Shown in pieces: positions 3,478 to 25,588 of a stretch of DNA of 32,000 nucleotides. Under the pieces are notes generated by a model that saw only the letters and a program-made list of their open reading frames with translations, did no database searches and was not told the origin of the DNA. Made by a program: the position numbers and the translations under genes. This DNA is from Ferroglobus placidus DSM 10642. Lineage in GTDB: Archaea; Halobacteriota; Archaeoglobi; Archaeoglobales; Archaeoglobaceae. The number at the start of each line of letters is the position of its first letter. The first letter of the stretch is position 1. The DNA lies in assembly GCF_000025505.1 (NCBI RefSeq), contig NC_013849.1, positions 51,250 to 83,249 of the forward strand. Reading direction: 5' to 3'.

Positions 3478-3528
3478 GTTAAGTATATCCATAGAAATAC
3501 TTAAATACTTTTTGGTTGGAATCAGAAC

Positions 3529-4573: not shown

Positions 4574-4711
4574 ATGATTAGCAGAGCTGAGAAAATCCTT
4601 ACCCCGCTTATGATTGGAGTTCTGATCTTTCTTGTGAACTTCTCTATTCTGACCTACGTCTTTTCAGCGTTTCCTTGGATCGTAAGCTTGTTTTTTGGGG
4701 TTCAGCAGACT
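4574..4711 (+). pseudogene. 5' fragment of an interrupted CPBP-family intramembrane protease gene
   Basis: ATG at 4574 encodes [43 protein letters not shown] and hits a stop (TAG) just inside the IS607-type element. The 3' part of the gene lies at 6559-6900. Confidence 0.65.
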
Positions 4712-6900: not shown

Positions 6901-7123
6901 TCTTTATTTTAATCTCCCCGAAATTTGAAACTTTCACATCTGAAATTTTAAAAATGAAAAAGGAGTGTAGAACTGGGAATAAAAGTTCCTTGTAAATCTC
7001 AGATGACTGAGCATTTTGCTTAGAACTTTGGCTGTTTTCTAAGTCTGTAATGCTTTTTAAAATTACGAGTTTGACGAAGGTTTATATACGACTATTAATC
7101 GTTTTAAATTTAGCGGTGGTACT

Positions 7124-8425: not shown

Positions 8426-8428
8426 AGT

Positions 8429-11048: not shown

Positions 11049-11794
11049 TGCTTAAAACGAATGAGCTCACGGTGTTCTACGAAAACGCAATAGCCGTTAA
11101 CAACGTTGACATTGAGGTTGAGGAGGGAGAGATCGTCGGGTTATTCGGACCTAACGGAGCCGGAAAATCGACGCTGATGTACACGATTTCCGGGATAATA
11201 CTTGATAAGAAAAAGAAGGAGGAGATGAGGGGTGGAGAGAGAATAACGATTCTCGGAAGGATAGAGTACGAAAAAAAAGATATAACTTTTCTCAAGCCGA
11301 ATAAGAGAGCGGAAATGGGCATAATTCTCTGTCCGGAGAGAAGAAGGGTTTTTCCGGAAAGCAGCGTTGTTGAGAACTTGAAAATCGGAGGTTACCTTAG
11401 AAGCTGGAGGGAGGTGAAAGAAGATATAGAAAAGATGTTCGAGATATTTCCGGAGCTTGAAAAGCATAAAAACAAGCCTGCAGGCTTTTTAAGCGGAGGA
11501 GAACAGCAGATGCTTGCGATAGCGAGAGCTTTAATGGCGAAACCCAAGCTGTTACTTTTGGACGAACCCCTGCTCGGACTGGCTCCTCTCGTTCAAAAAA
11601 GGATAGTCGAAGTCGTAAAAAGAATAAGGGATGAGCTTGGAGTTACCGTCCTCGTGGCTGAGCAGTACGCGAGACCCGTCTTTCCGATAATCGACAGAGG
11701 TTACATCATCGAGCGGGGAACTATCTCCTTCTCCGGCACTTCCGAGGAGTTGATGAGTAACCCGAACGTTAAAGCAGCATATTTGGGGGTGTGA
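11048..11794 (+). CDS. ABC transporter ATPase, LivF-like
   Basis: GPNGAGKSTLMYTISG, LSGGEQQMLAIARALMAKPKLLLLDEPLLGLAP. Confidence 0.93.
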   Translation: MLKTNELTVFYENAIAVNNVDIEVEEGEIVGLFGPNGAGKSTLMYTISGIILDKKKKEEMRGGERITILGRIEYEKKDITFLKPNKRAEMGIILCPERRRVFPESSVVENLKIGGYLRSWREVKEDIEKMFEIFPELEKHKNKPAGFLSGGEQQMLAIARALMAKPKLLLLDEPLLGLAPLVQKRIVEVVKRIRDELGVTVLVAEQYARPVFPIIDRGYIIERGTISFSGTSEELMSNPNVKAAYLGV

Positions 11795-11798: not shown

Positions 11799-13442
11799 AT
11801 GCTGAAAGATAATCTTCACGATAAAGTGCTGGAGATGACCGAGAAAGAAAAGACTGTTTTAACGAAAATTTACGAGATGAGCGAAAAGTATCCGGATCAA
11901 ACGGCGCTAATTTTCTTGGGAGAAAAGTACAACTACAAAAAGCTAATCAAACTAATAGAAAGCTTTTCTTCTGGAATTTCCGAGCTCGGAGTTAAAAAAG
12001 GAGATAGAGTAATGCTTTATCTTCCCAACTCCCCTCAGTTTCTCATCTCCTACTTCGGATTGATGAGGATAGGAGCTATTCCGGTGCCCGTCTCTCCCAT
12101 CTACACGAGTAACGAAATAAGGTACATGCTCGAAAACAGCGGAGCTAAAGTCGTTATCTGCAGCGATACGAACATAGGGTACGTTAGAGCCGTTGAAGAA
12201 GTTGGAGTTGAGAAAATCGTCGTTACGAACGTAGCTGATATGCTGCCAAAGTGGAAGAAAATTGTTGGAGAGCTTTTCGACAAAATTCCGAAGGGCAGCT
12301 ACGAAAAATCCGAGAAAGTATTTGAGTTCAAAAAACTGCTTAAAAAAGGAGAAAGCGTTGAAGAAGCAGAAATTGATCCGAAGAAGGATATAGCGCACAT
12401 TCTGTACACCGGCGGAACAACCGGAAGACCAAAAGGTGTCGTTCACACACACGCTTTTCTGCTAAGCGGAATAATCGGGTTGAGGGAGACTTACAAAGAA
12501 ATAAAAGAGCTTGAAAACAAGTTCGTCGTCGTCGTTCCCCTCTTCCACATGTTCGCATTGGACATGATAATGTCCACGACTCTCCACAAAGCCAACACCG
12601 CAATTTTGATGCCCAAGCCAAACATCGATGCAATCCTGGCGAGCATCGAGTACTACGAAGCTACTCTTTTTGCCGGAGTTCCGACTCTCTACAGGATGAT
12701 TCTCGAACACGATAGAGTCGACTATTACGACCTCTCCTCTCTCAAATTCTGCTGGAGCGCCGGAGACGTTCTTCCGGCTGAGGTTTACAAAATGTGGAAG
12801 GAGAAATTCGGAATTCCCCTCCACCAAGTTTACGGATCAACGGAAACCGTCGTCATTGCTGTAACGAGACTTTCTGAGGAGCCGAAGCTTGGTAGCGTTG
12901 GAAAGATAGTTCCGGGGAGAATCGCTAAGATTATCGATCCGGAAACGCTTGAGGAGGTTGAAGGGGAGGGGGAGTTGATCGTAACATCCGAATACCTCAC
13001 CATGGGTTATTGGAGAAACCCGGAAGAGACGGAGAAGGGATTCATAGAGAGCGGAGGTTATCTGTGGTGCAGAACCGGAGATTTCGTGAAAATTTACGAA
13101 GATAAGCTATATTTCGTCGATAGAAGGAAGGACATCATCAAGTACAAAGGGTACAGAATTGCGGCAAGTGAAGTTGAAGCTGTTTTGCAATCCCATCCGG
13201 CTGTTATTGCTGCAAGCGTTATTGGTGTACCAGACGAGAGAGTTGGAGAAAGAATTAAGGCTTTCGTGGTGTTGAAGGAGGACGCGAGAATTACAGCTCA
13301 TGATTTGAAGAGATGGTGCAGGGAAAGATTGGCACCTTACAAAGTTCCGGACTACATCGAGTTCAGGGACTTTCTTCCGAAGTCAAAAGTTGGAAAGATT
13401 TTGAGGAGAGAATTAAGAGATCAGGAACTCAGGAGGGGATGA
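11799..13442 (+). CDS. AMP-forming acyl/aryl-CoA ligase
   Basis: ILYTGGTTGRPKGVVHTHAF, YGSTETV, YRIAASEVEAVLQSHPAV, PKSKVGKILRREL: ANL superfamily motifs; 4 nt after livF-like gene. Confidence 0.9.
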   Translation: MLKDNLHDKVLEMTEKEKTVLTKIYEMSEKYPDQTALIFLGEKYNYKKLIKLIESFSSGISELGVKKGDRVMLYLPNSPQFLISYFGLMRIGAIPVPVSPIYTSNEIRYMLENSGAKVVICSDTNIGYVRAVEEVGVEKIVVTNVADMLPKWKKIVGELFDKIPKGSYEKSEKVFEFKKLLKKGESVEEAEIDPKKDIAHILYTGGTTGRPKGVVHTHAFLLSGIIGLRETYKEIKELENKFVVVVPLFHMFALDMIMSTTLHKANTAILMPKPNIDAILASIEYYEATLFAGVPTLYRMILEHDRVDYYDLSSLKFCWSAGDVLPAEVYKMWKEKFGIPLHQVYGSTETVVIAVTRLSEEPKLGSVGKIVPGRIAKIIDPETLEEVEGEGELIVTSEYLTMGYWRNPEETEKGFIESGGYLWCRTGDFVKIYEDKLYFVDRRKDIIKYKGYRIAASEVEAVLQSHPAVIAASVIGVPDERVGERIKAFVVLKEDARITAHDLKRWCRERLAPYKVPDYIEFRDFLPKSKVGKILRRELRDQELRRG

Positions 13443-13922
13443 CTCAAAAATTTCGGGGGAGAAGCGGAACTTGTAAATGTCGTAGACGAACATTAGGTTG
13501 AGCTCGTCCACAAATTCCCCGTGCCTGTCTAAGAACTCGTGAATCCACATGGTAACCTCTTTAAAGCTTCTGAAAGCTGCTAACACCTTCCATCTTCTCA
13601 CCCCTCCAGTTACGGCGAACATAACAACGTGAGCTGAACCTATTAAATATTCATACGCTTTCTTCCATTTTTTGAAGTGGTGGTTGTTGAAGCTCATCTC
13701 GATAAAAGCGAAAATTAAGTTGTTCTCGTTTGGAATTATTACTTCCCTTATCGCACCGCTCTTTTTTAGTTCTTGCAAAATTCTCGCAACTCTCGTCAGA
13801 CTTATTTGTATTCCGTACTCTTTCAGCAAAATTTCTCTGAGCTCCTTGACGGTGACGTTCGGATTTTTCACCTTTTCTTTGATTATGATCGTCTTAACTT
13901 TATCCAGCTTCATACCTTTCAC
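13413..13922 (-). CDS. Lrp/AsnC-like winged-helix transcriptional regulator
   Basis: N-terminal HTH (NPNVTVKELREILLKEYGIQISLTRVARILQELKKSGAIREVIIP) followed by a ligand-domain-like region; 51 nt downstream of the PpsB-like gene in the same orientation. Confidence 0.6.
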   Translation of the reverse strand: MKGMKLDKVKTIIIKEKVKNPNVTVKELREILLKEYGIQISLTRVARILQELKKSGAIREVIIPNENNLIFAFIEMSFNNHHFKKWKKAYEYLIGSAHVVMFAVTGGVRRWKVLAAFRSFKEVTMWIHEFLDRHGEFVDELNLMFVYDIYKFRFSPEIFESSPPEFLIS

Positions 13923-13973
13923 CTTGCTTCTTAGTCACAAAGTGTTTAAAGGTGATAAAAAATTAATATTTAA

Positions 13974-15044
13974 TCATTTCGGAATCTTGAAAGGAGTTAA
14001 AGCTCGTTCCATGAGCAAATCGAAACCGCTCTTTTTGCCAATGACTGGCTCCTTCTTCTTTTGACTCCACACCGTCTCTGGACGAGCTTGAAGAATGAAA
14101 ACGTTCTTTGGGAAGTCGAAGTCTTTATCTATTGCCCACTCTATGTCCATTGGATGAGAGTAATGTTCCTCAATCTTCTTCCCTATCTCCGCCAAGTAAA
14201 CAATTTCCTCATCGCTCAAGGACGGCTTTTCCCTCAAATCCTCAGGAACTTCTTCGTGAACAACTTTCCCATCCTTGTAAACGCACCACACGAGTTTTGG
14301 AGAGATCGTTCTGTCCAATATTTCCTTCGTAACTTTATCTACGACGAACCTGTCTGGAGTTACCTCTCCACTTACAATAGCCTCTCCAAGCCCCCAAGCA
14401 GATTCGATAACGATCTGACTCTCATCTCCGTTTGTCGGATTGAGAGTGAACATAACTCCGCTGCTCCTCGAATTTACCATCTTCTGAACTACGACGGCGA
14501 TGGAAACCTCATAATGATCAAAACCTTTCGTCGCTCTGTAGGCTATCGCTCTCGGAGTGTAGAGACTGCTCCAGCACTTTAAAACGTGCTTCACTACTTC
14601 ATCCTCTCCTTTAATCCAGAGATAAGTTTCCTGCTGTCCGGCGAAACTTGCGTCGGGCACATCCTCTGCTGTTGCTGAGCTTCTTACAGCCACAGCCACT
14701 TCTTCGCCGACGATTTCGCACAGCTTTCTGTAAGCTTCTCTAATCTCTTCTTCGATTTTTTCCGGAATCGGAGTCGATTCCACAATCTCCCTCGCCAAAG
14801 CACTGACTTTTTCAAGCTCTTCCGTATTCTTTACGTCAACCTCGGATATTATCCTCGCTATCTGCGCTTTCTTCCCCCTCTCTTTCGCCCCTTCTAAGAA
14901 TTCCTCAAAAGCGTTTATTGTGATAACAAAGCCAGGTGGAATCGGAAAGCCAGCCTTTACCATCTCTCCTAAATTTGCCCCTTTTCCTCCTGCTATGCCA
15001 ACATCTTCTTTGCTTATTTCGTCAAACCACTTAACATACTTCAT
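13974..15044 (-). CDS. PEP-synthase/PPDK N-terminal ATP-binding domain protein, candidate phenylphosphate synthase subunit B
   Basis: GGKGANLGEMVKAGFPIPPGFVIT...VRSSATAEDVPDASFAGQQETYL...MDIEWAIDKDFDFPKNVFILQARPET; stand-alone 356-aa domain ending after LQARPET, as in PpsB. Confidence 0.8.
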   Translation of the reverse strand: MKYVKWFDEISKEDVGIAGGKGANLGEMVKAGFPIPPGFVITINAFEEFLEGAKERGKKAQIARIISEVDVKNTEELEKVSALAREIVESTPIPEKIEEEIREAYRKLCEIVGEEVAVAVRSSATAEDVPDASFAGQQETYLWIKGEDEVVKHVLKCWSSLYTPRAIAYRATKGFDHYEVSIAVVVQKMVNSRSSGVMFTLNPTNGDESQIVIESAWGLGEAIVSGEVTPDRFVVDKVTKEILDRTISPKLVWCVYKDGKVVHEEVPEDLREKPSLSDEEIVYLAEIGKKIEEHYSHPMDIEWAIDKDFDFPKNVFILQARPETVWSQKKKEPVIGKKSGFDLLMERALTPFKIPK

Positions 15045-15055
15045 AGAGTACCACC

Positions 15056-15070
15056 TTCAACAATAGTCAA
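15056..15070. promoter_or_regulatory. Putative regulator site TTCAACAATAGTCAA (minus-strand TTGACTATTGTTGAA) upstream of PpsB-like gene
   Basis: Lies between a TATA-like TTTAAATATA and the GGTGGT SD; matches the site at 17057-17073. Confidence 0.4.
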
Positions 15071-15143
15071 TTATATATCGTTATATTTAAAACCTTGTCA
15101 AGTCTTAGCATTGATTAAAAATAATGGTGTAAAAAAAGTGGAG

Positions 15144-16997
15144 CTATTCTTCGGCTCTCTTCACAATCGTTACTACTCCCTTATCTCCGTCCACCCTGAT
15201 TATATCTCCGGTTTTTATCACCTGCGTAGCTATTCCCGTTCCGGTAACTGCTGGAATTCCGTATTCCCTACAAACTATCGCAGCGTGACTCGTCAATCCT
15301 CCTATGTCGGTCACAGCAGCTTTTATTTTCGTGAAAACGGGAGCCCAGCTCGGATTAGTATTTGGACAGACGAGAATCTCTCCCTCCTGCACCTGATCTA
15401 TCTCATCCAAGAACCTTATAACTCTGGCTTTCCCTTCAACAACTCCAGATGAAGATGCAAATCCTTTTATTTCCGTGACTTCCTCCGGTCGGTAGGTAAC
15501 ACCTTTAATCCACTCGCTGACTTTCTCCGAAGTTATTCCCCAGAGCATCACGGTAAATGGTTCCGTTACCTCTTCAGGAACGGTTCCCAAAGCTGGCGGA
15601 GGAGTCCAGTTCCTCGCTGCTTCGAGAATCTTCTTTCTCTTTTGAGCTTTTCTCTTCCAGTATTCAGCTCTCGGCGGCACGTTTTCTCCCAGAGCCCAAG
15701 CGGTGACGAGATCTTCAATGATCATTGGAATTTCGAAGCGATTGAAGAGGAAGATGTCGTCCACTTCGTTTAGCATTCCGTACCTGACGAAAAGTTTTCC
15801 GAACTCTCTCATTTTCTCAAAAACTATCGTGTGGAACCAGTGCTCGACCCAGAAGAGGTGGTTTTCGGCGTAATCGTAAATGTCTCTGACAATCTTGTAC
15901 GCTTCGTCGAACGCTTTTCTATCTTCGTCGGTTTTGATTAGCTTTCTGTACTCCTCAACGAGCTTTTCTCTCGCTTTGTGGATCTCGTCGATGTCTCTCT
16001 CTATCGTCTCACCTTTTTCAAGCATCTCTATGTAGCTTTTTAAGTAGCTGAAGGGGACTTCAAGGGTGTTTATCCAGCTTCCCTCGTAGTGGAACCATCC
16101 GCTACCGCAGGAGACGTAGAACCACGGATCTTTCGCCTCGTCAAATGCTCTAAGCCACTCTCTCCCTTCAGGAAAAATCTTTAATTCCTCAATCTTCTCC
16201 TCCGGGCTTTTGTCCGATTTCAGTATTTCCACAACCCTACCTCCAAGGGAAATGGCGAGCCTCGCAAGTTTTGCAAGCTCTTCTTGCGGTCGAAACATCA
16301 CCACGTCAGCTCCGGCTACCATCTTACCTATCGTGGACTCGCTTATTCCGGGGAAAAGCTTTCTGACAACGTCAGCAAAAGTCAGATAAGCCAAGTAGCT
16401 CAGATTTAGGTACTGGAAGTGGTACTGCCAAGCTTTGAATATCGCATCTATCAGCTTGTCGTAGGCTTCCATCAAGTCGTAGGAGGAATAGTACCCTCTT
16501 GGCTCCGGAATTACCCTTTCCTCTGGCTCAAAGGTTGGCAAATCAGGAACTTCTATGTTCTTAACGTACTCTCCGAGCTCTCTGAACTTCTTTTCCCACT
16601 TTTCATACAACTTCTCGCTCTTGTAATTCTGAAAAACCCAGAAAGCTCTTTTTTGAAACAGCTCGGCTTTCTTCTTAATCGTTTCCTCGCTTGGAGGCTC
16701 TACTGCGCAGATGTAGAAGTAGCAACCGAGAATTCTCTGGGCAACTCCCTGCGCTGGAGGAATGCAGAAGACCCTCGTGTTGTACTGAGATAAAGCGATC
16801 TGCCAAGCTTCGTGGAAGATCAAGTCGAAGGGATACATTGGATCTGGCGCGTGTATTTTGTCGAGGTACCAGAACTGCCTTTCTTCCCACTCTTTTCTCT
16901 CTTCGCTGAATATGTAGTGGGGTGGATACATCTCTTCCCATCCTTCAAGCTCCTTTGGAACTTCCACTTCCAGCGGTTTAGGAAATCCGTTTCCCAA
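15144..16997 (-). CDS. PEP-utilizing phosphohistidine-domain protein, candidate phenylphosphate synthase subunit A
   Basis: C-terminus GEILVCPNTNPSWAPVFTKIKAAVTDIGGLTSHAAIVCREYGIPAVTGTG contains the catalytic-His motif; long N-terminal non-PEPS region as in PpsA. Track start is 17015; a TTG start at 16997 after GAGGTGG is more plausible. Confidence 0.8.
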   Translation of the reverse strand: MGNGFPKPLEVEVPKELEGWEEMYPPHYIFSEERKEWEERQFWYLDKIHAPDPMYPFDLIFHEAWQIALSQYNTRVFCIPPAQGVAQRILGCYFYICAVEPPSEETIKKKAELFQKRAFWVFQNYKSEKLYEKWEKKFRELGEYVKNIEVPDLPTFEPEERVIPEPRGYYSSYDLMEAYDKLIDAIFKAWQYHFQYLNLSYLAYLTFADVVRKLFPGISESTIGKMVAGADVVMFRPQEELAKLARLAISLGGRVVEILKSDKSPEEKIEELKIFPEGREWLRAFDEAKDPWFYVSCGSGWFHYEGSWINTLEVPFSYLKSYIEMLEKGETIERDIDEIHKAREKLVEEYRKLIKTDEDRKAFDEAYKIVRDIYDYAENHLFWVEHWFHTIVFEKMREFGKLFVRYGMLNEVDDIFLFNRFEIPMIIEDLVTAWALGENVPPRAEYWKRKAQKRKKILEAARNWTPPPALGTVPEEVTEPFTVMLWGITSEKVSEWIKGVTYRPEEVTEIKGFASSSGVVEGKARVIRFLDEIDQVQEGEILVCPNTNPSWAPVFTKIKAAVTDIGGLTSHAAIVCREYGIPAVTGTGIATQVIKTGDIIRVDGDKGVVTIVKRAEE

Positions 16998-17056
16998 AAC
17001 TACCACCTCACCCAAAAGTTTTCAAACAATAAATAATTAGAAATATTTAGCTCTTT

Positions 17057-17073
17057 GTCAACAATTGTCATTG
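17057..17073. promoter_or_regulatory. Putative regulator site GTCAACAATTGTCATTG upstream of PpsA-like gene
   Basis: Minus strand ATGACAATTGTTGA matches TTGACTATTGTTGA at 12/14 positions; sits just downstream of TATA-like CTTTTAAAC. Confidence 0.4.
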
Positions 17074-17232
17074 AAAAGTTTAAAAGCTAAGTGCTAATTC
17101 GAATTGATCGAATTTTTCTTTGGCAGCGGGTTAATTCACAAGCAGAGTCTTGGTGTGCTCGGAAACGTAAATAACTTTGTCAACACCTGACGTTGAAAAA
17201 TCTTCTTATTGCTTCGCTCTTTTAAATTCTCC

Positions 17233-17652
17233 ATGAAGTTTGAGGTGATCGTCAGAGGCATTGTTAAGGATGGAGACAAAGTTCTCATCGGATTGAAGAG
17301 AAGGGACGATCCTCACCCGCTACAAGGTGAGTGGCACTTCCCCGGGGGAAGGTTGGAGTACGAAGAGAATCCTTGGGAGGCTGTTGAAAGGGAGATCGAG
17401 GAAGAGACCGGGTATAAAGTAAAGGCGGAGAGGATTATCGACGTCATTCCTAAAAAGCTCATCTGGCCGAACGAAATTGGAGAGCAGCAAACGCTACACG
17501 TAGTCTTTTCTTGCAAACTACTCGGAGGGAAAGCAAAAGCGGGAGACGATGTTGAAGAGGTCAAGTGGATTTCTGTGGAGGAGATAGACCGCTACTTGAA
17601 AAAAGAGTTTCTGCTGGAATCGAGTTTAGTTAGGGAGTTCATCGAATCTTGA
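17233..17652 (+). CDS. Nudix hydrolase
   Basis: Nudix box GGRLEYEENPWEAVEREIEEETGY. ATG at 17233 preferred over the track start at 17209. Confidence 0.9.
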   Translation: MKFEVIVRGIVKDGDKVLIGLKRRDDPHPLQGEWHFPGGRLEYEENPWEAVEREIEEETGYKVKAERIIDVIPKKLIWPNEIGEQQTLHVVFSCKLLGGKAKAGDDVEEVKWISVEEIDRYLKKEFLLESSLVREFIES

Positions 17653-18402
17653 TAGGATTAGATCTCTTATCGCCCTCGATATGTCTCTGTTCTTCAAAAC
17701 TACGGCTTCGTCGTACCACCTTCTCTCTTTTAAGCTACCTTCCGAAGGCATTATTATCGCCTCTTCGCAGTCTCTAACGTACATCCTCGCGGAGGATTTG
17801 AATTCCGAGCAGATGGCTACTTTGCTCAAAGTCTCTACTATATCCTTCGGAAGCTCGCTGAGGGGGGCGAGCAGATATATTTTCACACCCCTTTCACTTG
17901 CTTCGAATATCTCGGGCTTGTACTCGTAAACTATCCTAATAGATTCGTTGCTTGTGGCAGCGATGGCGAGCTCTTCGTCGCTTCTGTTTATAAACTCCTT
18001 AATCGTGCTTATCAACACCCTCCTCCCCGTCACTTCGTAGGAAATCGTGTTCGATACGTTTCCCCTTACACCTATTGACCTTACAATGTTAAGAAATTCC
18101 TCTCTCAATTTGAACAAATTATACAGTCTCTTCTCAACATCTCTTATGAGCATCGAAGTAGCCACTTCCGGAGACACAGCGTAGTACCTTCTCGGCTTCT
18201 GCGCGGAAACGTAGATTAACCCTTTTTCACTCAAATTTTCCAGGATGTCGTAGATTCTCTGTCTGGTCAATCCAACTTCCTTGGCTAACTCGCTGACTGA
18301 AGCCCCGGACTTCTTCAGTAGGAGCAGGTATATTTCAGCCTCCGTCTTACTCAAACCCAGATCTTCCAGAATGTTTGTCAACCGTGACTTATATTCCTGC
18401 AT
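17626..18402 (-). CDS. TrmB-family transcriptional regulator
   Basis: LEDLGLSKTEAEIYLLLLKKSGASVSELAKEVGLTRQRIYDILENLSEKGLI followed by an effector-binding domain. Confidence 0.88.
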   Translation of the reverse strand: MQEYKSRLTNILEDLGLSKTEAEIYLLLLKKSGASVSELAKEVGLTRQRIYDILENLSEKGLIYVSAQKPRRYYAVSPEVATSMLIRDVEKRLYNLFKLREEFLNIVRSIGVRGNVSNTISYEVTGRRVLISTIKEFINRSDEELAIAATSNESIRIVYEYKPEIFEASERGVKIYLLAPLSELPKDIVETLSKVAICSEFKSSARMYVRDCEEAIIMPSEGSLKERRWYDEAVVLKNRDISRAIRDLILSRFDELPN

Positions 18403-18560
18403 TACAATGTATTGAAATTCAAAGCATTACTTAAACCTTTCCACCAGCCTCCATTTAAATTAAATGTTGGTTATGGAAACTTCCAAGCTAAATCTGTAAA
18501 ATTGAAAATTTGACACAATTTTATCTACATTAAACATTACGGTAGTTTTTAGGTGGTAGG

Positions 18561-20090
18561 ATGGGGGAGTTTATAGAAAAAAAGGACTACTTCGGAGTGA
18601 GGTTTCCGATACCGAGAGATCTGAGAGCTTTCATTGAAATACTTGAGAAGGAGGGAGAGTTGAAGAGAATAAAAGCGGAGGTCGATTGGAATCTCGAATT
18701 GTCGCACATAGCAAAGCTGAATGAAGAAAGAAGCGGTCCGGCTTTACTCTTCGAGAACATAAAGGACTACAAGCCGGGAGAGAAGAGGGGAAGCAAAGTA
18801 TTCACTTCAGCTTTCACAACTCCGAAAAGGGTTGCGATAGCTTTGGGAATGGACAGAAGCGCTGGGGTTGTTGACATAGCGAGAGAATGGATGACGAGAG
18901 TTACGAAGGGAGGAAAGATTCCTCCGAAGAAAGTTAGCGATGGACCAGTTATGGAGAACGTAGTTGAGGGGGACAAAATTAATTTGCTCGATTTTCCAGT
19001 GCCGCAGGTTTATCCTCAGGACGGTGGCAGATACTTCGGCACGGCAGTTTACTTATTAACTAAAGATCCAGAGAAGGGGAAGGAGTGGGTAAATCTCGGC
19101 ACATACAGAATGATGGTCCTCGACGAGAAGAGCTTGGGTGTTCAGATTCTCAAGGGAAAGGATGCCGACGTGATGATGCAAAAGTACAGGGAAATGGGAG
19201 AAAAGGAGATGCCAGCAGCAGCAGTTATCGGAGGAACCCCTCTCGGCTTCCTAACTGGAAGCACCCTCGTCGAATACGGGACGAGCGAGTACGAGATAAT
19301 CGGTGCTTTGCAAGGTGAGCCAGTAGAAGTTATCGAGAGCGATTTGACCGGTTTGCCTATAGATGCGAGGGCAGAAATTGTCGCGGAGGGATTCATTCCG
19401 GTTGACGAAAAAGAGTGGAGACCCGAGGGACCTTTCGGAGAGTACACTGGCTACTACTCAGGAAAAGCTAAAGAGGAATTTCCAAAGCCTTGGATTAGAG
19501 TGGAGAGGATAATGCATAGAAACGATCCGATATTCTGGGTGACAACTGTCGGAAGACCGGTTACTGACACGCACATGATTCAGTCTATAAACAGAACAGC
19601 CGAGCTATGGACTCAGCTCGAACAGATGGGAGTTCCGGGAATACAGTCCGTCTACATACCTCCAGAAAGCGGTGGAAGATTCTGGGCGATAATTTCTATA
19701 AAGCAGATGTATCCGGGACACGGAAGGCATGCAGGATTGGCAGCTTTCGCCACAGTCGTCGGAAACTACGGAATGAAGGGAGTCATTGTTGTAGATGACG
19801 ACATAAGAGCTGATGATTTGCCGAGAGTCTGGTGGGCTTTGTCGGTGAGGTACAACCCGGTCGAAGACACCGAGATTATAAAGAAGGGTAGGTCAACGCC
19901 TTTAGATCCCTCACTGCCGATATACAAGGACTGGTACGACAGAAGGTTGCTGGTTTCGAGAATCCTCATAGATGCAACGACTCCCTACGAATGGGAGAGG
20001 AAGCCGCAGGTTATAGAGCTCGACAAAGAAACTGTGGAAAAGCTGAAGCAGAGGTGGGACGAGTTCGGCTTCGACTGGAAGCCGGAGTAA
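18561..20090 (+). CDS. UbiD-family prFMN-dependent (de)carboxylase, candidate phenylphosphate carboxylase alpha/beta-type subunit
   Basis: DLRAFIEILEKEGELKRIKAEVDWNLELSHIAKL, IIGALQGEPVEVIESDLTGLPIDARAEIVAEGFIP, GEYTGYYSG: UbiD motifs; SD AGGTGG upstream. Confidence 0.92.
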   Translation: MGEFIEKKDYFGVRFPIPRDLRAFIEILEKEGELKRIKAEVDWNLELSHIAKLNEERSGPALLFENIKDYKPGEKRGSKVFTSAFTTPKRVAIALGMDRSAGVVDIAREWMTRVTKGGKIPPKKVSDGPVMENVVEGDKINLLDFPVPQVYPQDGGRYFGTAVYLLTKDPEKGKEWVNLGTYRMMVLDEKSLGVQILKGKDADVMMQKYREMGEKEMPAAAVIGGTPLGFLTGSTLVEYGTSEYEIIGALQGEPVEVIESDLTGLPIDARAEIVAEGFIPVDEKEWRPEGPFGEYTGYYSGKAKEEFPKPWIRVERIMHRNDPIFWVTTVGRPVTDTHMIQSINRTAELWTQLEQMGVPGIQSVYIPPESGGRFWAIISIKQMYPGHGRHAGLAAFATVVGNYGMKGVIVVDDDIRADDLPRVWWALSVRYNPVEDTEIIKKGRSTPLDPSLPIYKDWYDRRLLVSRILIDATTPYEWERKPQVIELDKETVEKLKQRWDEFGFDWKPE

Positions 20091-20122
20091 ATTTCTAATT
20101 TTTTATTTTCGAGGTGGTAAAT

Positions 20123-20821
20123 TTGGTTAAGTGGATCGGCTTCGATTACGGACAATGCTTGATGGACTCTTCGAACAGAAAAGTCGAGTACTGGATGGCA
20201 GCAGTTTTCATAGACGAAGAAAAGGAAAGACCGGGGATAATAAACGAGAAGGTGAAGCTTTACAACGAGCTGATAGAGAAGTACGGAGATTTTAGAAGGT
20301 TGCACGAAAAGGGGAGGCACGAGGTTGAGGAGAAAGTTCTCGAGAACAATCCGTGTTTGATAAAGAGGTATTACGAAGTGGAACAAAAGCTTCTAAAACC
20401 AGCGGATGGAGCTGAAGACGCTCTGAGGTATCTGAAAAAGAAGGGCTACGTTCTCGACGTAGTTTCTGATATGAGCACGGTGAACGTGATAATCAATTTC
20501 CTAAACAACTACAACCTCCGCCACTTCTTCTCCAACATCTACTCCCCTATTGGTGTTGTTAGAGAGAGCGGAGAAATCGACGAGAGCTTTAAAGGAGTTT
20601 CAAAGGAAGACGGAAGCCTTTACGAGAAGTTGAAGGAAGACCTCGAGAGGAGAGGAATTGACGTTTCCGAGGCTGTAATGGTTGGAGATCATCCGGTGAA
20701 GGATGTTGAAATGGCAAAGAAGTACGGATTCATAACCGTCCACTACGACGTGAAAGGAAAACCTTCGGACAAAGCGGATTACGTAATAAGCCACTTCTCG
20801 GAGCTTAAAAAGATATTTTAA
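20123..20821 (+). CDS. HAD-superfamily protein, candidate phenylphosphate carboxylase delta subunit (PpcD)-like
   Basis: GFDYGQCLMDS, VVSDMST, VMVGDHPVKDVEMAKKYGF; embedded between UbiD-like and CoA ligase genes. Track start 20114 (GTG) overlaps the SD GAGGTGG; TTG at 20123 preferred. Confidence 0.75.
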   Translation: MVKWIGFDYGQCLMDSSNRKVEYWMAAVFIDEEKERPGIINEKVKLYNELIEKYGDFRRLHEKGRHEVEEKVLENNPCLIKRYYEVEQKLLKPADGAEDALRYLKKKGYVLDVVSDMSTVNVIINFLNNYNLRHFFSNIYSPIGVVRESGEIDESFKGVSKEDGSLYEKLKEDLERRGIDVSEAVMVGDHPVKDVEMAKKYGFITVHYDVKGKPSDKADYVISHFSELKKIF

Positions 20822-20830
20822 GGGGTCGAT

Positions 20831-22405
20831 ATGCCCATTTCCGGAGAAAAGTTCGAATTTAACGTTCCGGAAAGAATGAATTTAGCGGAGATCGTTGTTG
20901 ACAGGCAAGCTGAAAGGTTTCCAGAAAAAACGGCAATTGTTTGCGTTGGAAGCGAAAAAATGGGAATAAAAGAGGAGAAGGTAACATTTAAAGAGTTGAA
21001 AGATTTGACGAATAAAGCTGCGAACGCTTTTATTAATGAAGGAATGAGCTTTGACGACAGAGTTCTAATAGTTTTGCCCGACTCCATAGACTTCTACATC
21101 GCCTTTTACGGAGCTATAAAGCTCGGAGCCGTGCCAGTGCCTGTAAACACGTATCTTTTCGAGGAGGATTACGCTTACTTCTTGGAAGATTCCCGGGCTA
21201 AATTTGCGGTAATTTACAGCGGTTTCGAAAAAGCTTTGAAAGCAGCTGAAAATTCGAAGTATCTCAAAGAAGTTTTTACTGAAAAAGATTTGAGGGAACT
21301 TACGAATAAAGCATCTTCGGAATTCGAACCTTTAAAGCTCAGCAAGGATTCGATGGCTTTCTGGCTTTACAGTTCCGGAACGACCGGAAAGCCGAAGGGA
21401 GTTGTTCATCTCCACCACGATCCGATCTTCGTTTGCGAAAGCTATCACAGAAGAGTTCTCGGACTGAGCAGCGAAGACGTGTGCTACTCCGTTAGCAAGC
21501 TCTTCTTCGCCTACGGACTCGGAAGCTGCGGATACGGTAGTTTATACTTCGGGGCAACAGTGGTGGTTGATCCGGAAAGACCCGATCCGGAGAGAGCTGC
21601 AGAAATACTCGAAAAATACGGAGTTACAGCTTTGTTTACCGTCCCATCTTTCTACGCGAGGCTCGTAGAAATTGATAGGGATGTGAAGCATAAGTTAAGA
21701 ATCGCTGTGAGCGGAGGAGAGCCTTTGCCGGAAGCTGTATGGTACAAGTTCAAAGAGAAGTTCGGAGTTGAGATAGTTGAGCATATAGGATCAACCGAGG
21801 CTTTGTACGCTTTCATCGGTCACTATCCGGGGAAAGTCAAGCCCGGATACACCGGAGTCGTAATGCCCGGGTGGGAGGTTAAGCTTGTCGACGAGAACGG
21901 AAACGAAATAGTCGAGGACGGGATTCCCGGCAAACTTTTGATTAAGGGTGACTCGGTGGCTGCTTTTTACTGGGAAAAGCACGAAAAGACGAAAAAAGCC
22001 TTTCTCGGAGAGTGGTACGACACTGGCGACACCTTCGTTAAAGAGGGCGAATACTTCAAGTACCACGGAAGGGCAGACGACTTGATAAAAACGAGAGGGC
22101 TTTGGGTTTCTCCGGTTAAAGTTGAGAACGCTTTATTAAAGCATCCGGCGATAGAAGAATGCGCAGTTGTGCAGGGATTTAACGAGAAAAAACTCGAGGT
22201 CGTTGCGGCTTACGTTGTTCTAAGGAAAGGATACGACGAAAGCGTTGTGGATGATGTAAAAAGATTTTTGAGGGAGCAGGGGCTGAAAGGCTTCGAAATC
22301 CCTGAGAAATGGGTTTTTGTCAGAGAACTTCCGAGAACCGCTACTGGAAAAATTCAAAAATACAAGTTGAGGATGAAAGAGTTTGAGGAGGCGTTTGGGA
22401 AATGA
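20831..22405 (+). CDS. Benzoate-CoA ligase family protein (candidate 4-hydroxybenzoate-CoA ligase)
   Basis: MNLAEIVVDRQAERFPEKTAIVC, FWLYSSGTTGKPKGVVHLHHD, FFAYGLGSCGYGSLYFGAT, EHIGSTEALYAFIGHYPG, LPRTATGKIQKYKLR: typical of the benzoate/4-hydroxybenzoate-CoA ligase group. Confidence 0.85.
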   Translation: MPISGEKFEFNVPERMNLAEIVVDRQAERFPEKTAIVCVGSEKMGIKEEKVTFKELKDLTNKAANAFINEGMSFDDRVLIVLPDSIDFYIAFYGAIKLGAVPVPVNTYLFEEDYAYFLEDSRAKFAVIYSGFEKALKAAENSKYLKEVFTEKDLRELTNKASSEFEPLKLSKDSMAFWLYSSGTTGKPKGVVHLHHDPIFVCESYHRRVLGLSSEDVCYSVSKLFFAYGLGSCGYGSLYFGATVVVDPERPDPERAAEILEKYGVTALFTVPSFYARLVEIDRDVKHKLRIAVSGGEPLPEAVWYKFKEKFGVEIVEHIGSTEALYAFIGHYPGKVKPGYTGVVMPGWEVKLVDENGNEIVEDGIPGKLLIKGDSVAAFYWEKHEKTKKAFLGEWYDTGDTFVKEGEYFKYHGRADDLIKTRGLWVSPVKVENALLKHPAIEECAVVQGFNEKKLEVVAAYVVLRKGYDESVVDDVKRFLREQGLKGFEIPEKWVFVRELPRTATGKIQKYKLRMKEFEEAFGK

Positions 22406-22989
22406 GGATCGTCGTAGCTCTAACGGGAGCTTCCGGACAGATTTACGGAATAAGGCTTCTCGAATACTTAAGTAAAACGGATATCGAGACGCATCTTGTT
22501 ATCTCTCCGGCTGCCAAAGAAAATATAGAGATAGAGACGGAATACAGCGTAGAATACGTTGAGAGCTTGGCGGATTTCTGCTACGACTACATGGACTTCA
22601 CGGCTCCAATAGCAAGCGGAAGTTTCAAGCACGACGGGATGATCGTGATCCCCTGCTCGATCAAAACAGCTTCGGCGATAGCAAACAGCCTCAACTACAA
22701 CCTGATAATCAGAGCAGCAGACGTGACTTTGAAGGAGAGGAGAAAGCTCGTTCTCGTCGTTAGAGAGACTCCGCTTCATTCCGGTCACTTGAGGATGCTC
22801 GCCAAGCTTTCGGATCTCGGAGCGATAGTATACCCGCCAGTTCCAGCGTTTTACTCCAAACCGAAGAGCTTGGACGACATCGTAAATCACACGGTGGGAA
22901 GAGCCCTCGATCTTCTCGGAGTTGAGAACAACCTCTACAAACCTTGGATGGGCAGGGAGAGTATATCGGAGAAGGAGTTCAATTTGTAA
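22402..22989 (+). CDS. ubiX: UbiX-family flavin prenyltransferase
   Basis: MRIVVALTGASGQIYGIRLLEYL, PIASGSFKHDGMIVIPCSIKTASAIANSLNYNLIIRAADVTLKERRKLVLVVRETPLHSGHLRMLAKLSDLGAIVYPPVPAFY; ATGA overlap with ligase stop. Confidence 0.95.
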   Translation: MRIVVALTGASGQIYGIRLLEYLSKTDIETHLVISPAAKENIEIETEYSVEYVESLADFCYDYMDFTAPIASGSFKHDGMIVIPCSIKTASAIANSLNYNLIIRAADVTLKERRKLVLVVRETPLHSGHLRMLAKLSDLGAIVYPPVPAFYSKPKSLDDIVNHTVGRALDLLGVENNLYKPWMGRESISEKEFNL

Positions 22990-23546
22990 TCGGCATCAAG
23001 CTCTGAAAATTTATTTTCCCCCTCCAAAACAGCTATTTTAATTCCGGCTCTTTTGCAAGCCTCCACATCTGATCTGCTATCACCTACGAAGAGAACATCT
23101 TTTTTGCTGACCTTAAGCGATTCGATCGCTTTTAATATTCCCATCGGAGACGGTTTTAAAAGCTGAACGTCCTTTCTTCCTATAACAACCTCGAAGCTGC
23201 CGGCTATTTGAAATTTTTCAAGAGCTTTTTTCAAAACGTCCTTGCTTACGTTAGAAACCACCGCCTTTTTAACCCTCAGCTTTTCGAGAACTTCCTTGAC
23301 TCCCTCTCTAAGCTTCCACCTCTTAAAAGCCTCTAAATCGTACTTGTCGTAGATATTGTCGATCAAAGAAATTAAGGATGGATGATATGAAGCTACGAAG
23401 TTGTATATCTCGGCGTAGTTGCTACTCTCGATCTCAATTCCCCTCTCTTCGAGAACGCTTTTCGCTTCTTTCACTGCCTTACTCAAATCCCAAGCGAAGT
23501 TGACAAGTGTCCCCTCAAAGTCGAAGATTAGTGCTTTGAACGTCAT
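22935..23546 (-). CDS. HAD-superfamily hydrolase
   Basis: MTFKALIFDFEGTLV, VVSNVSK, LLKPSPMGI, VLFVGDSRSDVEACKRAG. Start at 23546 gives ATGA overlap with the upstream molybdopterin gene; track start 23582 lies inside that gene. Confidence 0.85.
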   Translation of the reverse strand: MTFKALIFDFEGTLVNFAWDLSKAVKEAKSVLEERGIEIESSNYAEIYNFVASYHPSLISLIDNIYDKYDLEAFKRWKLREGVKEVLEKLRVKKAVVSNVSKDVLKKALEKFQIAGSFEVVIGRKDVQLLKPSPMGILKAIESLKVSKKDVLFVGDSRSDVEACKRAGIKIAVLEGENKFSELDADYKLNSFSDILSLPIQGL

Positions 23547-25588
23547 TCTTTCCTCGCAAGGAGTGCTTTCAGCTCCGGGCATCCGGAAATCGGATCTCCG
23601 GGCTTGTTTGAGGTAAGAACGTTAACGTTCCCTTCGCTCCATCCGTGGGGGATGTTTATTACTCCCGGGGCTATGTCTTCGGTAACTTTAGCTCTGACGA
23701 CTATGCTTCCCCTCTCGGTTTTGACGATAACCTTGTCTCCGTCCTTCACTCCGAACTTCTCTGCAGTTTTCGGATTTATCTCAACGTAAGCCTCCGGAAG
23801 AATTCTTCTCATCTTCTCCACGTTTCTCATTTGGGAATGGGTGTAGTAAACGTCCCTCGCCCCGGTAGTTAGAATTAAAGGATATTCCTTGGCTTTTTCG
23901 CTGTACGGACTTTCGCTCGGCTCTTTCGGGGTTGGAATCGGATCGTAGCCGAGTTTTTTCAAAGTTTCCGAGTATATCTCGACTTTCCCGCTCGGAGTTT
24001 TGAATCCTCTCTTCTTGTACTCTTCGTACTTTACTTCTCCAGTCCAAACTCCTGAAGGATATTTTTCGTTCAGATCTTCGAAGGAGTAGCCGGTAGGCTC
24101 CAAAACGTAATCGAGAACTTCTTCAACGCTCGTCCACGGGAAGTAGTTATCGAATCCCATTTTCTTCGCAAGCTCAAGCCAGAATTCCACGTCACTCTTA
24201 GCCTCTCCCAAAGGCTCTATCACCTTCTTCCTCAGCATCATGTAGGGAATTCCGAATATCACGCTGTAGTAGTCGACGAGCTCGTATCTTTCAAGGAAAG
24301 AGGCGGCGGGTAAGAAAACATCTGCGTGTTTTGCTGTTTCCGTCATGAACATATCCATAACCGCCAGAAATTCCACCTTCTTCAGCATCTCCACGACTTT
24401 ATTCGAGTTGGGCCAGGTTAAAGCCGGATTTGATCCGGCGACAAAGATGCTTTTAATTGGGTACGGCTTTCCTTCGAGGACAGCGTCGTATAAATACATC
24501 CCCTGCCCCTCGCCAAGATGAGTTTCCCAGACTTGGTAGAATAGGGGGTGCTCCTTAATTCCGAGAGGCACGTCTTCCAGCATTTCCACGAGCCTGAGGT
24601 TTCTCGTGTGGACTCTTGCAGCTCTGACAAATCCTCCCTTTACATCGATGTTCCCCGTTAAAGCGTGGAGAATAGCCACGCTCCTCGCGTTCTGCACGCC
24701 AGTAGGAACCTGATCCAGAGCGTTCACCCCTTGGACTATGCATGCCGGCTTTGTTGTTGCGAAAGTTCTTGCAATCTCAGTAATCGTCTCTGCTTCAACC
24801 CACGTTCTTTCGGCTATTTCCTCCAGAGAATATTTGGCTACGTGATTTTTCAATTCTTCAAAGCCGACGCAGTAATTGGAGACAAATTCCTTATCGTAAA
24901 GCTCCTCTTCGATTATGACTTTCATCAACCCCAAAGCTAAGTAGGTGTCGCTGCCCGGTCTAATTGAGGCGTGTATGTCAGCCATCTTCGCAACCTTGGT
25001 TCTTCTCGGATCGATTACTATAAGCTTCGCTCCTCTTTCTCTGGCTTTGTCTATCCTCCAAGCCAAAGGTGGCTTGGAAGCGTGGGGATTGTGAGCCCAG
25101 ACGATTATGCAGTTAGCATTGTCTACATCAGCTACGTTGAACTTTCCGATCGTGAGAATGTAGCCTATTATCTGATGCCTGTAACACATGCTCTCGGGAG
25201 AGAAGCAGTTTGGAGTACCATAGACATCCATAAACCTCCTTATGAAGCCTACAGTAGATGAACCTCCGAGAAGTATCGGCATTCCGATTATCGTAGCAAA
25301 GTACCTCGGGTCCTCTTCTCTTATCTCCTTCAAATTCTCAGCCACGAGCTCTATAGCATAATCCCAGTCAACCTTTTTCCACTTCTCTCCTTCCTTGACC
25401 ATCGGACGCGTCACTCTTTCTTTCGAGTAGATGTAATCTGGAGCGACGCTTCCTTTCGGGCAGAGCCTTCCAAAATTGAGAGGGTGCTCCTTCATTCCCT
25501 TAACACTCGTTATTCTTCCCTTTTCAACTTTCACATCCATTCCGCAACTCCAAGCGCAAAGCTCGCAAGCTGTCTTGATTATCATCAC
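23543..25588 (-). CDS. Molybdopterin(-tungsten)-dependent oxidoreductase with N-terminal [4Fe-4S] motif
   Basis: CELCAWSCGMDVKVEKGRITSVKGMKEHPLNFGRLCPKG [4Fe-4S] motif; GVNARS-like cofactor-binding domains; C-terminal ...INIPHGWSEGNVNVLT MopB C-domain. Confidence 0.9.
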   Translation of the reverse strand: MMIIKTACELCAWSCGMDVKVEKGRITSVKGMKEHPLNFGRLCPKGSVAPDYIYSKERVTRPMVKEGEKWKKVDWDYAIELVAENLKEIREEDPRYFATIIGMPILLGGSSTVGFIRRFMDVYGTPNCFSPESMCYRHQIIGYILTIGKFNVADVDNANCIIVWAHNPHASKPPLAWRIDKARERGAKLIVIDPRRTKVAKMADIHASIRPGSDTYLALGLMKVIIEEELYDKEFVSNYCVGFEELKNHVAKYSLEEIAERTWVEAETITEIARTFATTKPACIVQGVNALDQVPTGVQNARSVAILHALTGNIDVKGGFVRAARVHTRNLRLVEMLEDVPLGIKEHPLFYQVWETHLGEGQGMYLYDAVLEGKPYPIKSIFVAGSNPALTWPNSNKVVEMLKKVEFLAVMDMFMTETAKHADVFLPAASFLERYELVDYYSVIFGIPYMMLRKKVIEPLGEAKSDVEFWLELAKKMGFDNYFPWTSVEEVLDYVLEPTGYSFEDLNEKYPSGVWTGEVKYEEYKKRGFKTPSGKVEIYSETLKKLGYDPIPTPKEPSESPYSEKAKEYPLILTTGARDVYYTHSQMRNVEKMRRILPEAYVEINPKTAEKFGVKDGDKVIVKTERGSIVVRAKVTEDIAPGVINIPHGWSEGNVNVLTSNKPGDPISGCPELKALLARKE

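Follow-up and report, generated by a model that had tools for sequence, protein, structure and literature searches.

A probable anaerobic phenol-activation gene cluster of Ferroglobus placidus and its conserved HAD and Nudix neighbours

How is phenylphosphate carboxylated in strict anaerobes that have a single PpcB protein and lack the other carboxylase subunits, alpha, gamma and delta? This question of the field arises again in a 32,000-nucleotide stretch of the genome of Ferroglobus placidus DSM 10642 (contig NC_013849.1, positions 51,250 to 83,249 of the forward strand), which we call the window and in whose numbering positions are given. Its region 13413-22989 carries genes for the phenylphosphate synthase subunits PpsA and PpsB, one PpcB-type carboxylase of the UbiD family, a small HAD-family protein designated HAD1, a benzoate-CoA ligase family enzyme, UbiX, a Nudix hydrolase, and regulators of the TrmB and Lrp/AsnC types (Table 1). 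We estimate at about 85% the probability that this locus is the gene cluster through which F. placidus DSM 10642 activates phenol anaerobically, a core claim that is already published for the same strain and the same locus. The literature also presents the cluster as the one known case of anaerobic phenol activation in a hyperthermophilic archaeon and as a source of thermostable phosphotransferase and prenylated FMN (prFMN) carboxylase enzymes. The fresh contribution of the present analysis is comparative: HAD1 and the associated Nudix genes, conserved as neighbours of the carboxylase gene, may be stand-ins for the subunits that are absent here, and they offer two concrete, testable candidates in the question of carboxylation by a single PpcB.

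The synthase, carboxylase and ligase genes

The F. placidus DSM 10642 proteins ADC64272, ADC64274, ADC64275, ADC64278, ADC64280 and ADC64281 are exact matches to translations of the window. Public assemblies of sequencing runs that contain these F. placidus proteins carry the same DNA. An earlier interpretation of this DNA, made from its letters and termed here the sequence-only reading, had listed the open reading frames (ORFs) with family labels; all of them were recovered in position and strand, and their domain content in Pfam and NCBIfam agreed. Family calls were made at Pfam and NCBIfam cut-offs, and orthology rests on NCBIfam equivalog cut-offs rather than on a tree including the characterised Thauera proteins. 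For comparison, species-representative genomes were scanned with a PpsA alignment, and the best 80 loci, which came from Archaeoglobi and mostly Thermodesulfobacteriota and included no Thauera or Geobacter reference loci, were compared by tblastn and phmmer with the proteins of the window. What was observed directly comprises which genes are present, the families to which they belong, and the conservation of catalytic motifs and of synteny. Region 13413-22989 is fully coding, with gaps of 52, 100, 212-236, 159, approximately 30 and 10 bp and one 4-bp overlap, and therefore leaves no room for a further subunit gene inside it. The layout recurs in five other Archaeoglobi loci, and the order PpsA-PpsB-UbiD(-UbiX) recurs in dozens of bacterial loci, which argues that the gene arrangement is not due to chance. 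The GC content across the region is 0.42-0.50, and no compositional island was visible in the composition profile. A scan for sigma-70 promoters and terminators (10 found against 11.1 expected, and 15 against 11.6) relied on a bacterial consensus that is inapplicable to an archaeon.

The two minus-strand genes, labelled PpsB-like and PpsA-like by the sequence-only reading, have the domain content that these names imply: PPDK_N is the sole domain of PpsB, and the C-terminal mobile domain of PpsA (PF00391, residues 543-613) lies behind a long unique N-terminal region of approximately 500 residues without a Pfam domain. PpsA was matched end to end by NF006153 (PRK08296 subfamily; NF006153/PRK08296.1-5) at 1078 bits against a cut-off of 578, while the models for phosphoenolpyruvate (PEP) synthase and rifampicin phosphotransferase covered only the mobile domain of approximately 110 residues, at 107-117 bits against cut-offs of 598-999. 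PpsB is the counterpart of the N-terminal ATP-grasp third of PEP synthase, the models of which match only its residues 1-335 and well below cut-off. The PEP/pyruvate-binding domain PF02896 had no Pfam match in PpsA or PpsB, and PpsB also lacks the His domain. By these family models, the pair is of the split PpsA/PpsB type. The phospho-histidine motif GG-TSH571AAIV of PpsA was invariant in an alignment of 14 homologues, and PpsB adjoins PpsA in 72 of the 80 related loci. No ppsC gene was found in the cluster, where the sole ORF after ppsB encodes the Lrp/AsnC-fold regulator and the gaps leave no room for another. In the proposed mechanism, PpsB would bind ATP and hand the diphosphoryl group to His571 of PpsA, which would then phosphorylate phenol (phenol + ATP + H2O -> phenylphosphate + AMP + Pi). 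In a preprint on a related acetovanillone system, "PpsAB of Ferroglobus placidus DSM 10642" is counted with the phenylphosphate synthases already reported, and the F. placidus PpsA is noted to have the equivalent of Thauera His569 and its PpsB the PPDK_N ATP-binding domain.

The UbiD-family protein passed the TIGR02724 equivalog for the beta subunit of phenylphosphate carboxylase with 559.1 bits (cut-off 468.95; residues 20-505 of 509), and it stayed far below the cut-offs of the models for the alpha subunit (TIGR02723; 202 against 565), VdcC (309 against 650), the menaquinone-type enzyme (252 against 496) and E. coli-type UbiD (211 against 788). As judged from these scores, it is an orthologue of PpcB and not an enzyme of quinone biosynthesis. 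The sequence-only reading had staked its phenol-activation pathway on two points, namely that the PEP-synthase-like pair is not of the PEP synthase or rifampicin phosphotransferase type and that UbiD is not of the menaquinone or ubiquinone type, and both came out in its favour. Among solved UbiD enzymes, 7pda was closest (E 3e-80), and the NLGTYR and EGPFGEYTGY motifs align between the two proteins; we take these motifs to contain the counterparts of the catalytic Arg and Glu residues of Fdc1. A second UbiD paralogue, which could have been PpcA (alpha), is absent from the 32-kb window, and within 13413-22989 there is no free coding space for a gene of the small gamma subunit (PpcC). The reduced phenylphosphate carboxylase would convert phenylphosphate and CO2 to 4-hydroxybenzoate and Pi, and would consist of one PpcB-type UbiD, probably with the co-transcribed HAD1 replacing the delta (phosphatase) subunit of Thauera. 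Architecture and missing subunits had been singled out beforehand as the interesting part of this locus; the subunits are indeed absent from the cluster, but the reduced set of PpsAB, PpcB and UbiX is an already described feature of strict anaerobes. In a published comparison of the Pps-Ppc operons of nitrate-, sulfate- and iron-reducers and of syntrophs, the common set consisted only of PpsAB, PpcB and a UbiX-like gene.

The scores of UbiD also bear on the view that UbiD and UbiX form a reversible 4-hydroxybenzoate decarboxylase or a direct phenol carboxylase that needs no phenylphosphate, with HAD1 and Nudix having only cofactor or housekeeping roles and PpsAB being separate. In its favour, one paper says of the UbiD-like protein of F. 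placidus that it "directly carboxylates phenol"; the cluster has no alpha, gamma or delta subunit; and the nearest solved relatives of UbiD are simple prFMN decarboxylases. Nevertheless, we consider this view highly improbable, given that the PpcB model was passed and the VdcC model was not, and that UbiD is tightly and widely linked to PpsA and PpsB across archaea and bacteria. Thermodynamics speaks against it as well: direct carboxylation of phenol is unfavourable at physiological CO2, hence the ATP-driven phosphorylation.

The substrate we infer from published physiology and expression work on F. placidus. Holmes and colleagues reportedly described in 2012 a single cluster of genes for carboxylating phenol via phenylphosphate, with higher transcript levels on phenol than on acetate. 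The genome paper names phenol and 4-hydroxybenzoate as compounds that F. placidus oxidises, and it calls the phenol genes and pathway "recently characterized", citing papers of 2011 and 2012. The sequence-only reading had named Ferroglobus as a precedent for archaeal phenol growth and called the pathway concept not new; the window DNA itself is that of Ferroglobus placidus. The route phenol -> phenylphosphate -> 4-hydroxybenzoate -> 4-hydroxybenzoyl-CoA is well supported as the one encoded here. It is very unlikely, in our estimation, that the same logic serves another phenolic or an aromatic amine (p-cresol, hydroxyacetophenone, catechol, hydroquinone, or aniline via phosphoamidate), with phenol as a side substrate. 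AcvAB and CreHI phosphorylate acetovanillone and p-cresol, respectively, at only 40-44% identity to phenylphosphate synthases, and there are HAD1/Pps-like loci with other enzymes, such as Amidohydro_2 in locus L094 and a PaaK-like ligase in L085. However, the UbiD protein scores above the cut-off of the PpcB equivalog, phenol and 4-hydroxybenzoate both support growth of F. placidus, and the literature treats its PpsAB as phenylphosphate synthase; in addition, its PpsA is 66-77% identical to those of Thermodesulfobacteriota, the phylum of Desulfatiglans and Syntrophorhabdus, both of them described as phenol degraders with pps/ppc genes.

The remaining two genes of the carboxylase operon had been labelled a benzoate-CoA ligase family enzyme and UbiX, and both labels stand, with TIGR02262 and TIGR00421 matched above cut-off. 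The start of ubiX overlaps the stop of the ligase gene, and at least 29 of the related loci have UbiX together with PpsA, PpsB and UbiD. The ligase is distinct from the characterised benzoate-CoA ligase Ferp_1044, and its position is kept in the Archaeoglobi loci at 63-83% identity. From its family and position, it is a probable 4-hydroxybenzoate-CoA ligase that would form 4-hydroxybenzoyl-CoA, and UbiX would provide prFMN to UbiD.

HAD1 and the Nudix hydrolase beside the carboxylase gene

HAD1 belongs to a small subfamily comprising 25 clusters among 5.8 billion. An alignment of 15 members shows motif I without exception as W-x-G-x-D-[YF]-G, in which the Asp nucleophile is kept and the D+2 position is always Gly; the motif III Lys (K161) and the motif IV residues G188-D189 and D194 are likewise invariant. 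In ordinary HAD phosphatases, the D+2 residue is the general acid/base Asp. The best-scoring model for HAD1 was TIGR02253, with 59 bits where the cut-off is 170. Even at E <= 10, HAD1 matched no PpcD or KdsC model, which rules it out as a PpcD orthologue as far as the library goes, in which the presence of the delta model (TIGR02726) was not confirmed. The UbiD+HAD pairing put forward by the sequence-only reading is reasonable; as a PpcD homologue, HAD1 did not hold up.

Genomic context ties HAD1 to aryl-phosphate metabolism: it is found with PpcB-type UbiD in three archaeal lineages and with Pps-like genes in bacteria. HAD1 lies directly downstream of the PpcB-type UbiD gene in L003-L007 and in L083, and follows it after an intervening Nudix gene in L085. 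The L083 locus, from Ca. Caldarchaeum, has the order PpcB-type UbiD (500 bits with TIGR02724)-HAD1-Nudix-PpsA-PpsB, with overlapping UbiD and HAD1 frames. In L085 (positions 5021-7741), an archaeal locus from the Juan de Fuca subsurface, TrmB stands opposite UbiD (571 bits with TIGR02724), a Nudix gene resembling YfcD and isopentenyl-diphosphate isomerase (IDI), and HAD1, the frames of which overlap or abut; a PpsA-like gene, the PaaK-like ligase gene, a flavodoxin-like gene and ubiX are in the vicinity, and PpsB was not seen within 7 kb. Bacterial HAD1-like genes adjoin Pps-like genes in L043 (HAD1-229aa-PpsA-PpsB), L091 (HAD1-229aa-PpsB-UbiD-Liv ABC), L093 (PpsA...HAD1) and L094 (positions 4845-10222; PpsB-Amidohydro_2-HAD1-228aa-PpsA, without a UbiD gene).

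Two side observations arose from these bacterial loci. The bacterial HAD1-like gene is always followed by a gene for a protein of approximately 229 residues without a family match, the copies of which are 25-38% identical and have no counterpart in the window. Locus L094 could be a variant in which phosphorylation is followed by carboxylation through a non-prFMN carboxylase; Amidohydro_2 includes reversible aromatic-acid decarboxylases.

For HAD1, a role as a functional, non-homologous stand-in for PpcD appears plausible, at slightly less than an even chance, from its context and by analogy with AcvF. This HAD phosphatase of the acetovanillone pathway has no similarity to PpcD, and it dephosphorylates the product of AcvAB and so feeds the carboxylase; it is thus a precedent for the role proposed for HAD1. 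In the AcvABCDEF system of Sphingobium sp. SYK-6, as proposed for F. placidus, a phenolic OH is phosphorylated by a Pps-like pair (there AcvAB), and a HAD protein unrelated to PpcD, in that case a dedicated phosphatase, is present. The systems differ in that the Acv carboxylase is biotin-dependent rather than a UbiD enzyme, AcvF is NagD-like and HAD1 belongs to another subfamily, and the substrate and organism are others. The loss of the general acid in HAD1 is tolerable with phenolate, a good leaving group, and we speculate that HAD1 would deliver the very anion that the carboxylase presumably uses.

Between the two gene blocks, as the sequence-only reading had proposed, lies a Nudix gene, identified by PF00293; the Nudix box GRLEYEENPWEAVEREIEEETG of its product is intact (consensus GX5EX7REUXEEXGU). 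A MutT-like Nudix gene is kept in L003 and L007. Nudix genes of at least three subfamilies occur beside PpcB-type UbiD or UbiX (the window, L083, L085 and L021): a NudE-like gene is found in L083 and in the bacterial locus L021, where it lies directly upstream of genes for UbiX and a flavin reductase, and the YfcD/IDI-like gene of L085 lies between UbiD and HAD1. A strict regular expression for the Nudix box missed divergent Nudix genes and was replaced by phmmer and the Pfam tables of the gene calls. UbiD and UbiX are also joined with a Nudix gene on a transcript published for a benzene-degrading consortium, and the E. coli Nudix enzymes NudJ, NudB, NudF and NudI have been reported to convert dimethylallyl diphosphate (DMAPP) to dimethylallyl-monophosphate (DMAP), the prenyl donor for prFMN synthesis by UbiX. 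We therefore advance, tentatively, the possibility that the neighbouring Nudix protein supplies UbiX with DMAP made from DMAPP; the repeated recruitment of non-orthologous Nudix genes, one of them of a type that binds isopentenyl diphosphate or DMAPP, points in this direction.

The same neighbourhoods admit a different interpretation, in which HAD1 and Nudix would carry out two steps, a pyrophosphatase and a phosphatase reaction, on some cofactor or nucleotide and take no part in phenylphosphate turnover, with PpcB as the sole component of the carboxylase. HAD1-like genes do stand beside Nudix genes in L083, L085 and L089, the last of which has no pps or UbiD gene nearby, and the automatic Joint Genome Institute (JGI) label of the HAD1 family is FMN phosphatase YigB. 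Yet the Nudix partners belong to at least four subfamilies (MutT-like, NudE-like, IDI/YfcD-like and CoA-pyrophosphatase-like), which disfavours one conserved two-step HAD1-Nudix pathway; bacterial HAD1-like genes sit with PpsA- and PpsB-like genes and no Nudix gene; and all members of the HAD1 family lack the D+2 general acid of ordinary phosphomonoesterases. We regard this interpretation as unlikely. The fuller proposal, which we hold to be doubtful, is that a two-protein phenylphosphate carboxylase operates in archaea and some bacteria. A homomeric PpcB-type UbiD would work with HAD1 as its dedicated partner from a HAD subfamily not characterised before; with its Asp nucleophile but Gly at D+2, HAD1 would hand phenolate, not phenol, straight to the carboxylase, and the two proteins would take the place of the Thauera alpha, gamma and delta subunits. 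The UbiX of the cluster would obtain its DMAP, made from DMAPP, through Nudix hydrolases that are not orthologous to one another and were recruited more than once.

Several points weigh against reading the locus as a complete phenol-activation cluster with a reduced carboxylase. PpsC, PpcA, PpcC and PpcD were not found in the cluster. To our knowledge, a phenylphosphate carboxylase with a single UbiD protein has never been reconstituted, and carboxylase activity was reportedly not detectable in Geobacter extracts. The Nudix gene is missing from the Geoglobus clusters, and HAD1-like genes occur without pps or UbiD genes nearby in L087 (beside UPF0261) and in L089 (beside a CoA-pyrophosphatase-like Nudix gene). 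The substrate cannot be read from sequence, because Pps-like enzymes have been reported to phosphorylate other phenolics too, acetovanillone and p-cresol among them; nor can the specificity of the CoA ligase for 4-hydroxybenzoate or benzoate be predicted from it. In one secondary source, moreover, the F. placidus UbiD is interpreted as carboxylating phenol directly.

Related loci in archaea and bacteria

Six of the related loci belong to Archaeoglobi: L003 (Ferroglobus sp.), L004-L006 (Geoglobus), L007 (Archaeoglobus sp. JdFR-37) and L008 (Archaeoglobaceae). Within the reach of their contigs, L003 and L005-L007 have the divergent layout of the window, with TrmB opposite UbiD-HAD1-ligase-UbiX and facing PpsA-PpsB; L004 and L008 lie on short contigs and contain parts of it. 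In L002, which is the SRR019238 assembly, the genes for TrmB, the ligase, HAD2 (a conventional HAD hydrolase next to ubiX) and the molybdopterin enzyme are fragmented, but unbroken in both the window and L001; these splits are taken to be assembly or sequencing frameshifts rather than biology.

The bacterial loci, mostly of Thermodesulfobacteriota, have PpsA, PpsB and UbiD in the same direction, followed by extra genes and then by UbiX. The extra genes encode a receiver-like 170-aa protein (32 loci), UPF0261/PRK02399 (43 loci) and a 127-aa protein (12 loci). The roles of these three proteins in phenol metabolism appear uncharacterised, and all three are absent from the F. placidus cluster.

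Identity between archaeal and bacterial proteins is unusually high: F. placidus PpsA is 65-77% identical to proteins from metagenome-assembled genomes (MAGs) of Thermodesulfobacteriota, Dehalococcoidia and Anaerolineales, and the corresponding values against bacterial proteins are 49-64% for PpcB and 53-60% for UbiX. For this reason, the sequences suggest that the pps/ppcB/ubiX core moved between archaea and bacteria by horizontal transfer.

Set beside the known systems, the cluster shares with PpsABC of Thauera aromatica K172 the split into PpsA (approximately 70 kDa, phospho-His) and PpsB (approximately 40 kDa, ATP-binding), and with its PpcABCD system a PpcB-type UbiD, a UbiX gene within the cluster and the presumed logic of phosphorylation followed by dephosphorylation and carboxylation via phenolate. 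Unlike Thauera, F. placidus is without PpsC, PpcA, the gamma subunit and the KdsC-type delta phosphatase; its carboxylase operon contains a different HAD subfamily and a CoA ligase, and its regulators are the archaeal TrmB and Lrp types. With Geobacter metallireducens, Desulfatiglans, Syntrophorhabdus and many Thermodesulfobacteriota MAGs, it shares the minimal set of PpsA, PpsB, one PpcB-type UbiD and UbiX. These reduced bacterial clusters differ in having the UPF0261/PRK02399, 170-aa and 127-aa proteins and in lacking HAD1 and the benzoate-CoA-ligase-family gene, and the F. placidus cluster in having the divergent layout with TrmB in the middle.

Table 1. Features of the window and, where a locus is named, of related loci
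Feature	Position	Strand	Supporting match or remark
Liv-type ABC transporter	7124-11794	+	Peripla_BP_6, LivH/UrtB-like, LivF/LivG-like matches
Liv-type ABC substrate-binding protein	7124-8425	+	
Liv-type ABC permeases	8429-9307; 9304-10311	+	
Liv-type ABC ATPases	10308-11048; 11048-11794	+	
FadD-type AMP-forming acyl-CoA ligase, ADC64272	11799-13442	+	AMP-binding domains
Divergent Lrp/AsnC-like regulator, 166 aa	13413-13913	-	Predicted fold; previously unannotated ORF
PpsB, ATP-binding subunit of phenylphosphate synthase, 356 aa, ADC64274	13974-15044	-	PPDK_N residues 17-334, E 2e-122
PpsA, phospho-histidine and phenol-binding subunit, 617 aa, ADC64275	15144-16997	-	NF006153, PEP-utilizers mobile domain
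24-25 nt element (TTTGTCAACA-NNTGNCN-TTGAAAA), direct repeat, two copies	17054-17077; 17176-17199	+	Divergent ppsA/Nudix intergenic region
Small MutT-like Nudix hydrolase, 139 aa	17233-17652	+	PF00293 70.9 bits, cut-off 21.1, E 1.4e-19
TrmB-family transcription regulator, divergent from UbiD operon	17626-18402	-	PF01978 E 1.2e-20; weak Regulator_TrmB C-terminal domain
PpcB-type UbiD-family carboxylase (phenylphosphate carboxylase beta), 509 aa, ADC64278	18561-20090	+	UbiD_N, UbiD, UbiD_C; TIGR02724
HAD1, small HAD subfamily	20123-20821	+	HAD_2 and Hydrolase domains (Pfam)
Benzoate-CoA ligase family enzyme, 524 aa, ADC64280	20831-22405	+	TIGR02262 441.5 bits, cut-off 375.25
UbiX flavin prenyltransferase, 195 aa, ADC64281	22402-22989	+	TIGR00421 262.1 bits, cut-off 108.9; PF02441 E 5e-43
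HAD2, conventional HAD-IA hydrolase, convergent on ubiX	22935-23546	-	HAD_2 E 1.7e-29
Molybdopterin oxidoreductase	23543-25585		Fdh-alpha-like 424 bits, below cut-off 666
Extra genes of bacterial loci, examples among L009-L082	L021 14903-16120; L076 14633-16887		
Copies of the ~229-aa protein	L043 8983-9597; L087 3881-4570; L091 1224-1913; L094 7738-8424		

Regulators, intergenic repeat and flanking genes

The TrmB and the divergent Lrp/AsnC-type regulators would, in the roles we infer for them alongside those of HAD1 and the Nudix protein, control the two divergent operons. The TrmB regulator, placed between the blocks by the sequence-only reading, was recovered through its PF01978 match, and its gene adjoins the UbiD gene in L003-L008 and L085. 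The product of 13413-13913 had no significant Pfam or NCBIfam match, and the HTH_AsnC and AsnC_trans_reg models failed to match it. An exhaustive HMMER search of 1.8 billion representatives returned only 11 relatives. The ORF is nevertheless a real gene: it is kept with 92% identity in another Ferroglobus and with 54-56% identity in L007 at the same place after ppsB. A single-sequence AlphaFold model was unusable (predicted local distance difference test score, pLDDT, 57), and an AlphaFold2 model based on a five-sequence alignment was used instead (pLDDT 74.9); it shows a three-helix helix-turn-helix followed by a beta-alpha-beta-beta-alpha-beta domain. The top 41 Foldseek matches to this model in the PDB were all full-length and were either Lrp/AsnC/FFRP proteins or the structurally homologous sirohaem decarboxylase AhbA/B; the best was 2dbb_B (E 6.9e-8), and the probability was 1.00 for 2dbb, 2cyy and similar entries. 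The sequence profile likewise reached 2dbb_A over its full length at E 0.0022; matches to de novo TIM barrels in the profile search were short repeated-segment artefacts. The product is thus best described, on the strength of its modelled fold, as a divergent relative of Lrp/AsnC, and the earlier "Lrp-like" label is right at the level of fold. The gene presumably occupies the position held by ppsC in Thauera; the Lrp/AsnC fold rules it out as PpsC.

The 24-25 nt element in the divergent intergenic region between ppsA and the Nudix gene matched twice in the window against 0.00 expected, and no such pair arose in 100 shuffles of the window. Both copies and their 122-nt spacing are conserved, the spacing identically, in the Ferroglobus sp. 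locus L003, and copy 1 lies just upstream of an AT-rich, TATA-like stretch before ppsA. The elements are candidate operators to which the TrmB or the Lrp-like regulator may bind. A partial TTGAAAATTTGACA was also seen upstream of the UbiD gene, at approximately 18501-18516.

On the upstream side, Liv-type ABC transporter genes and a FadD-type ligase gene adjoin the cluster. The ligase was best matched in NCBIfam by long-chain-fatty-acid-CoA ligase models, all below cut-off, and scored 254 bits with TIGR02262 (cut-off 375). Liv-type ABC genes also flank Pps/UbiD/HAD1-like genes in the unrelated bacterial loci L091, L093 and L094; the transporter may thus belong to the locus, as a possible uptake system, whereas the link of the FadD-like ligase to the pathway is uncertain. 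Downstream, HAD2 has the motif I DFEGT, with Glu at D+2, and keeps its place in Geoglobus and Archaeoglobus loci with 47-58% identity; its membership of the locus is uncertain. The adjoining molybdopterin enzyme belongs to the DMSO-reductase/formate-dehydrogenase superfamily and not to the xanthine-oxidase family, and its counterpart in L007, 79% identical, lies beside the cluster. No 4-hydroxybenzoyl-CoA reductase is encoded in the 32-kb window. Mobile elements are present on the left: an IS607-family serine transposase gene (5914-6525; 240 bits, cut-off 110) and a gene for a TnpB-like RNA-guided nuclease (4644-5948) form a pair approximately 600 bp upstream of the Liv-type ABC genes that adjoin the phenol cluster, and a DUF2080 "transposon-encoded" ORF (3319-3729) lies near this pair.

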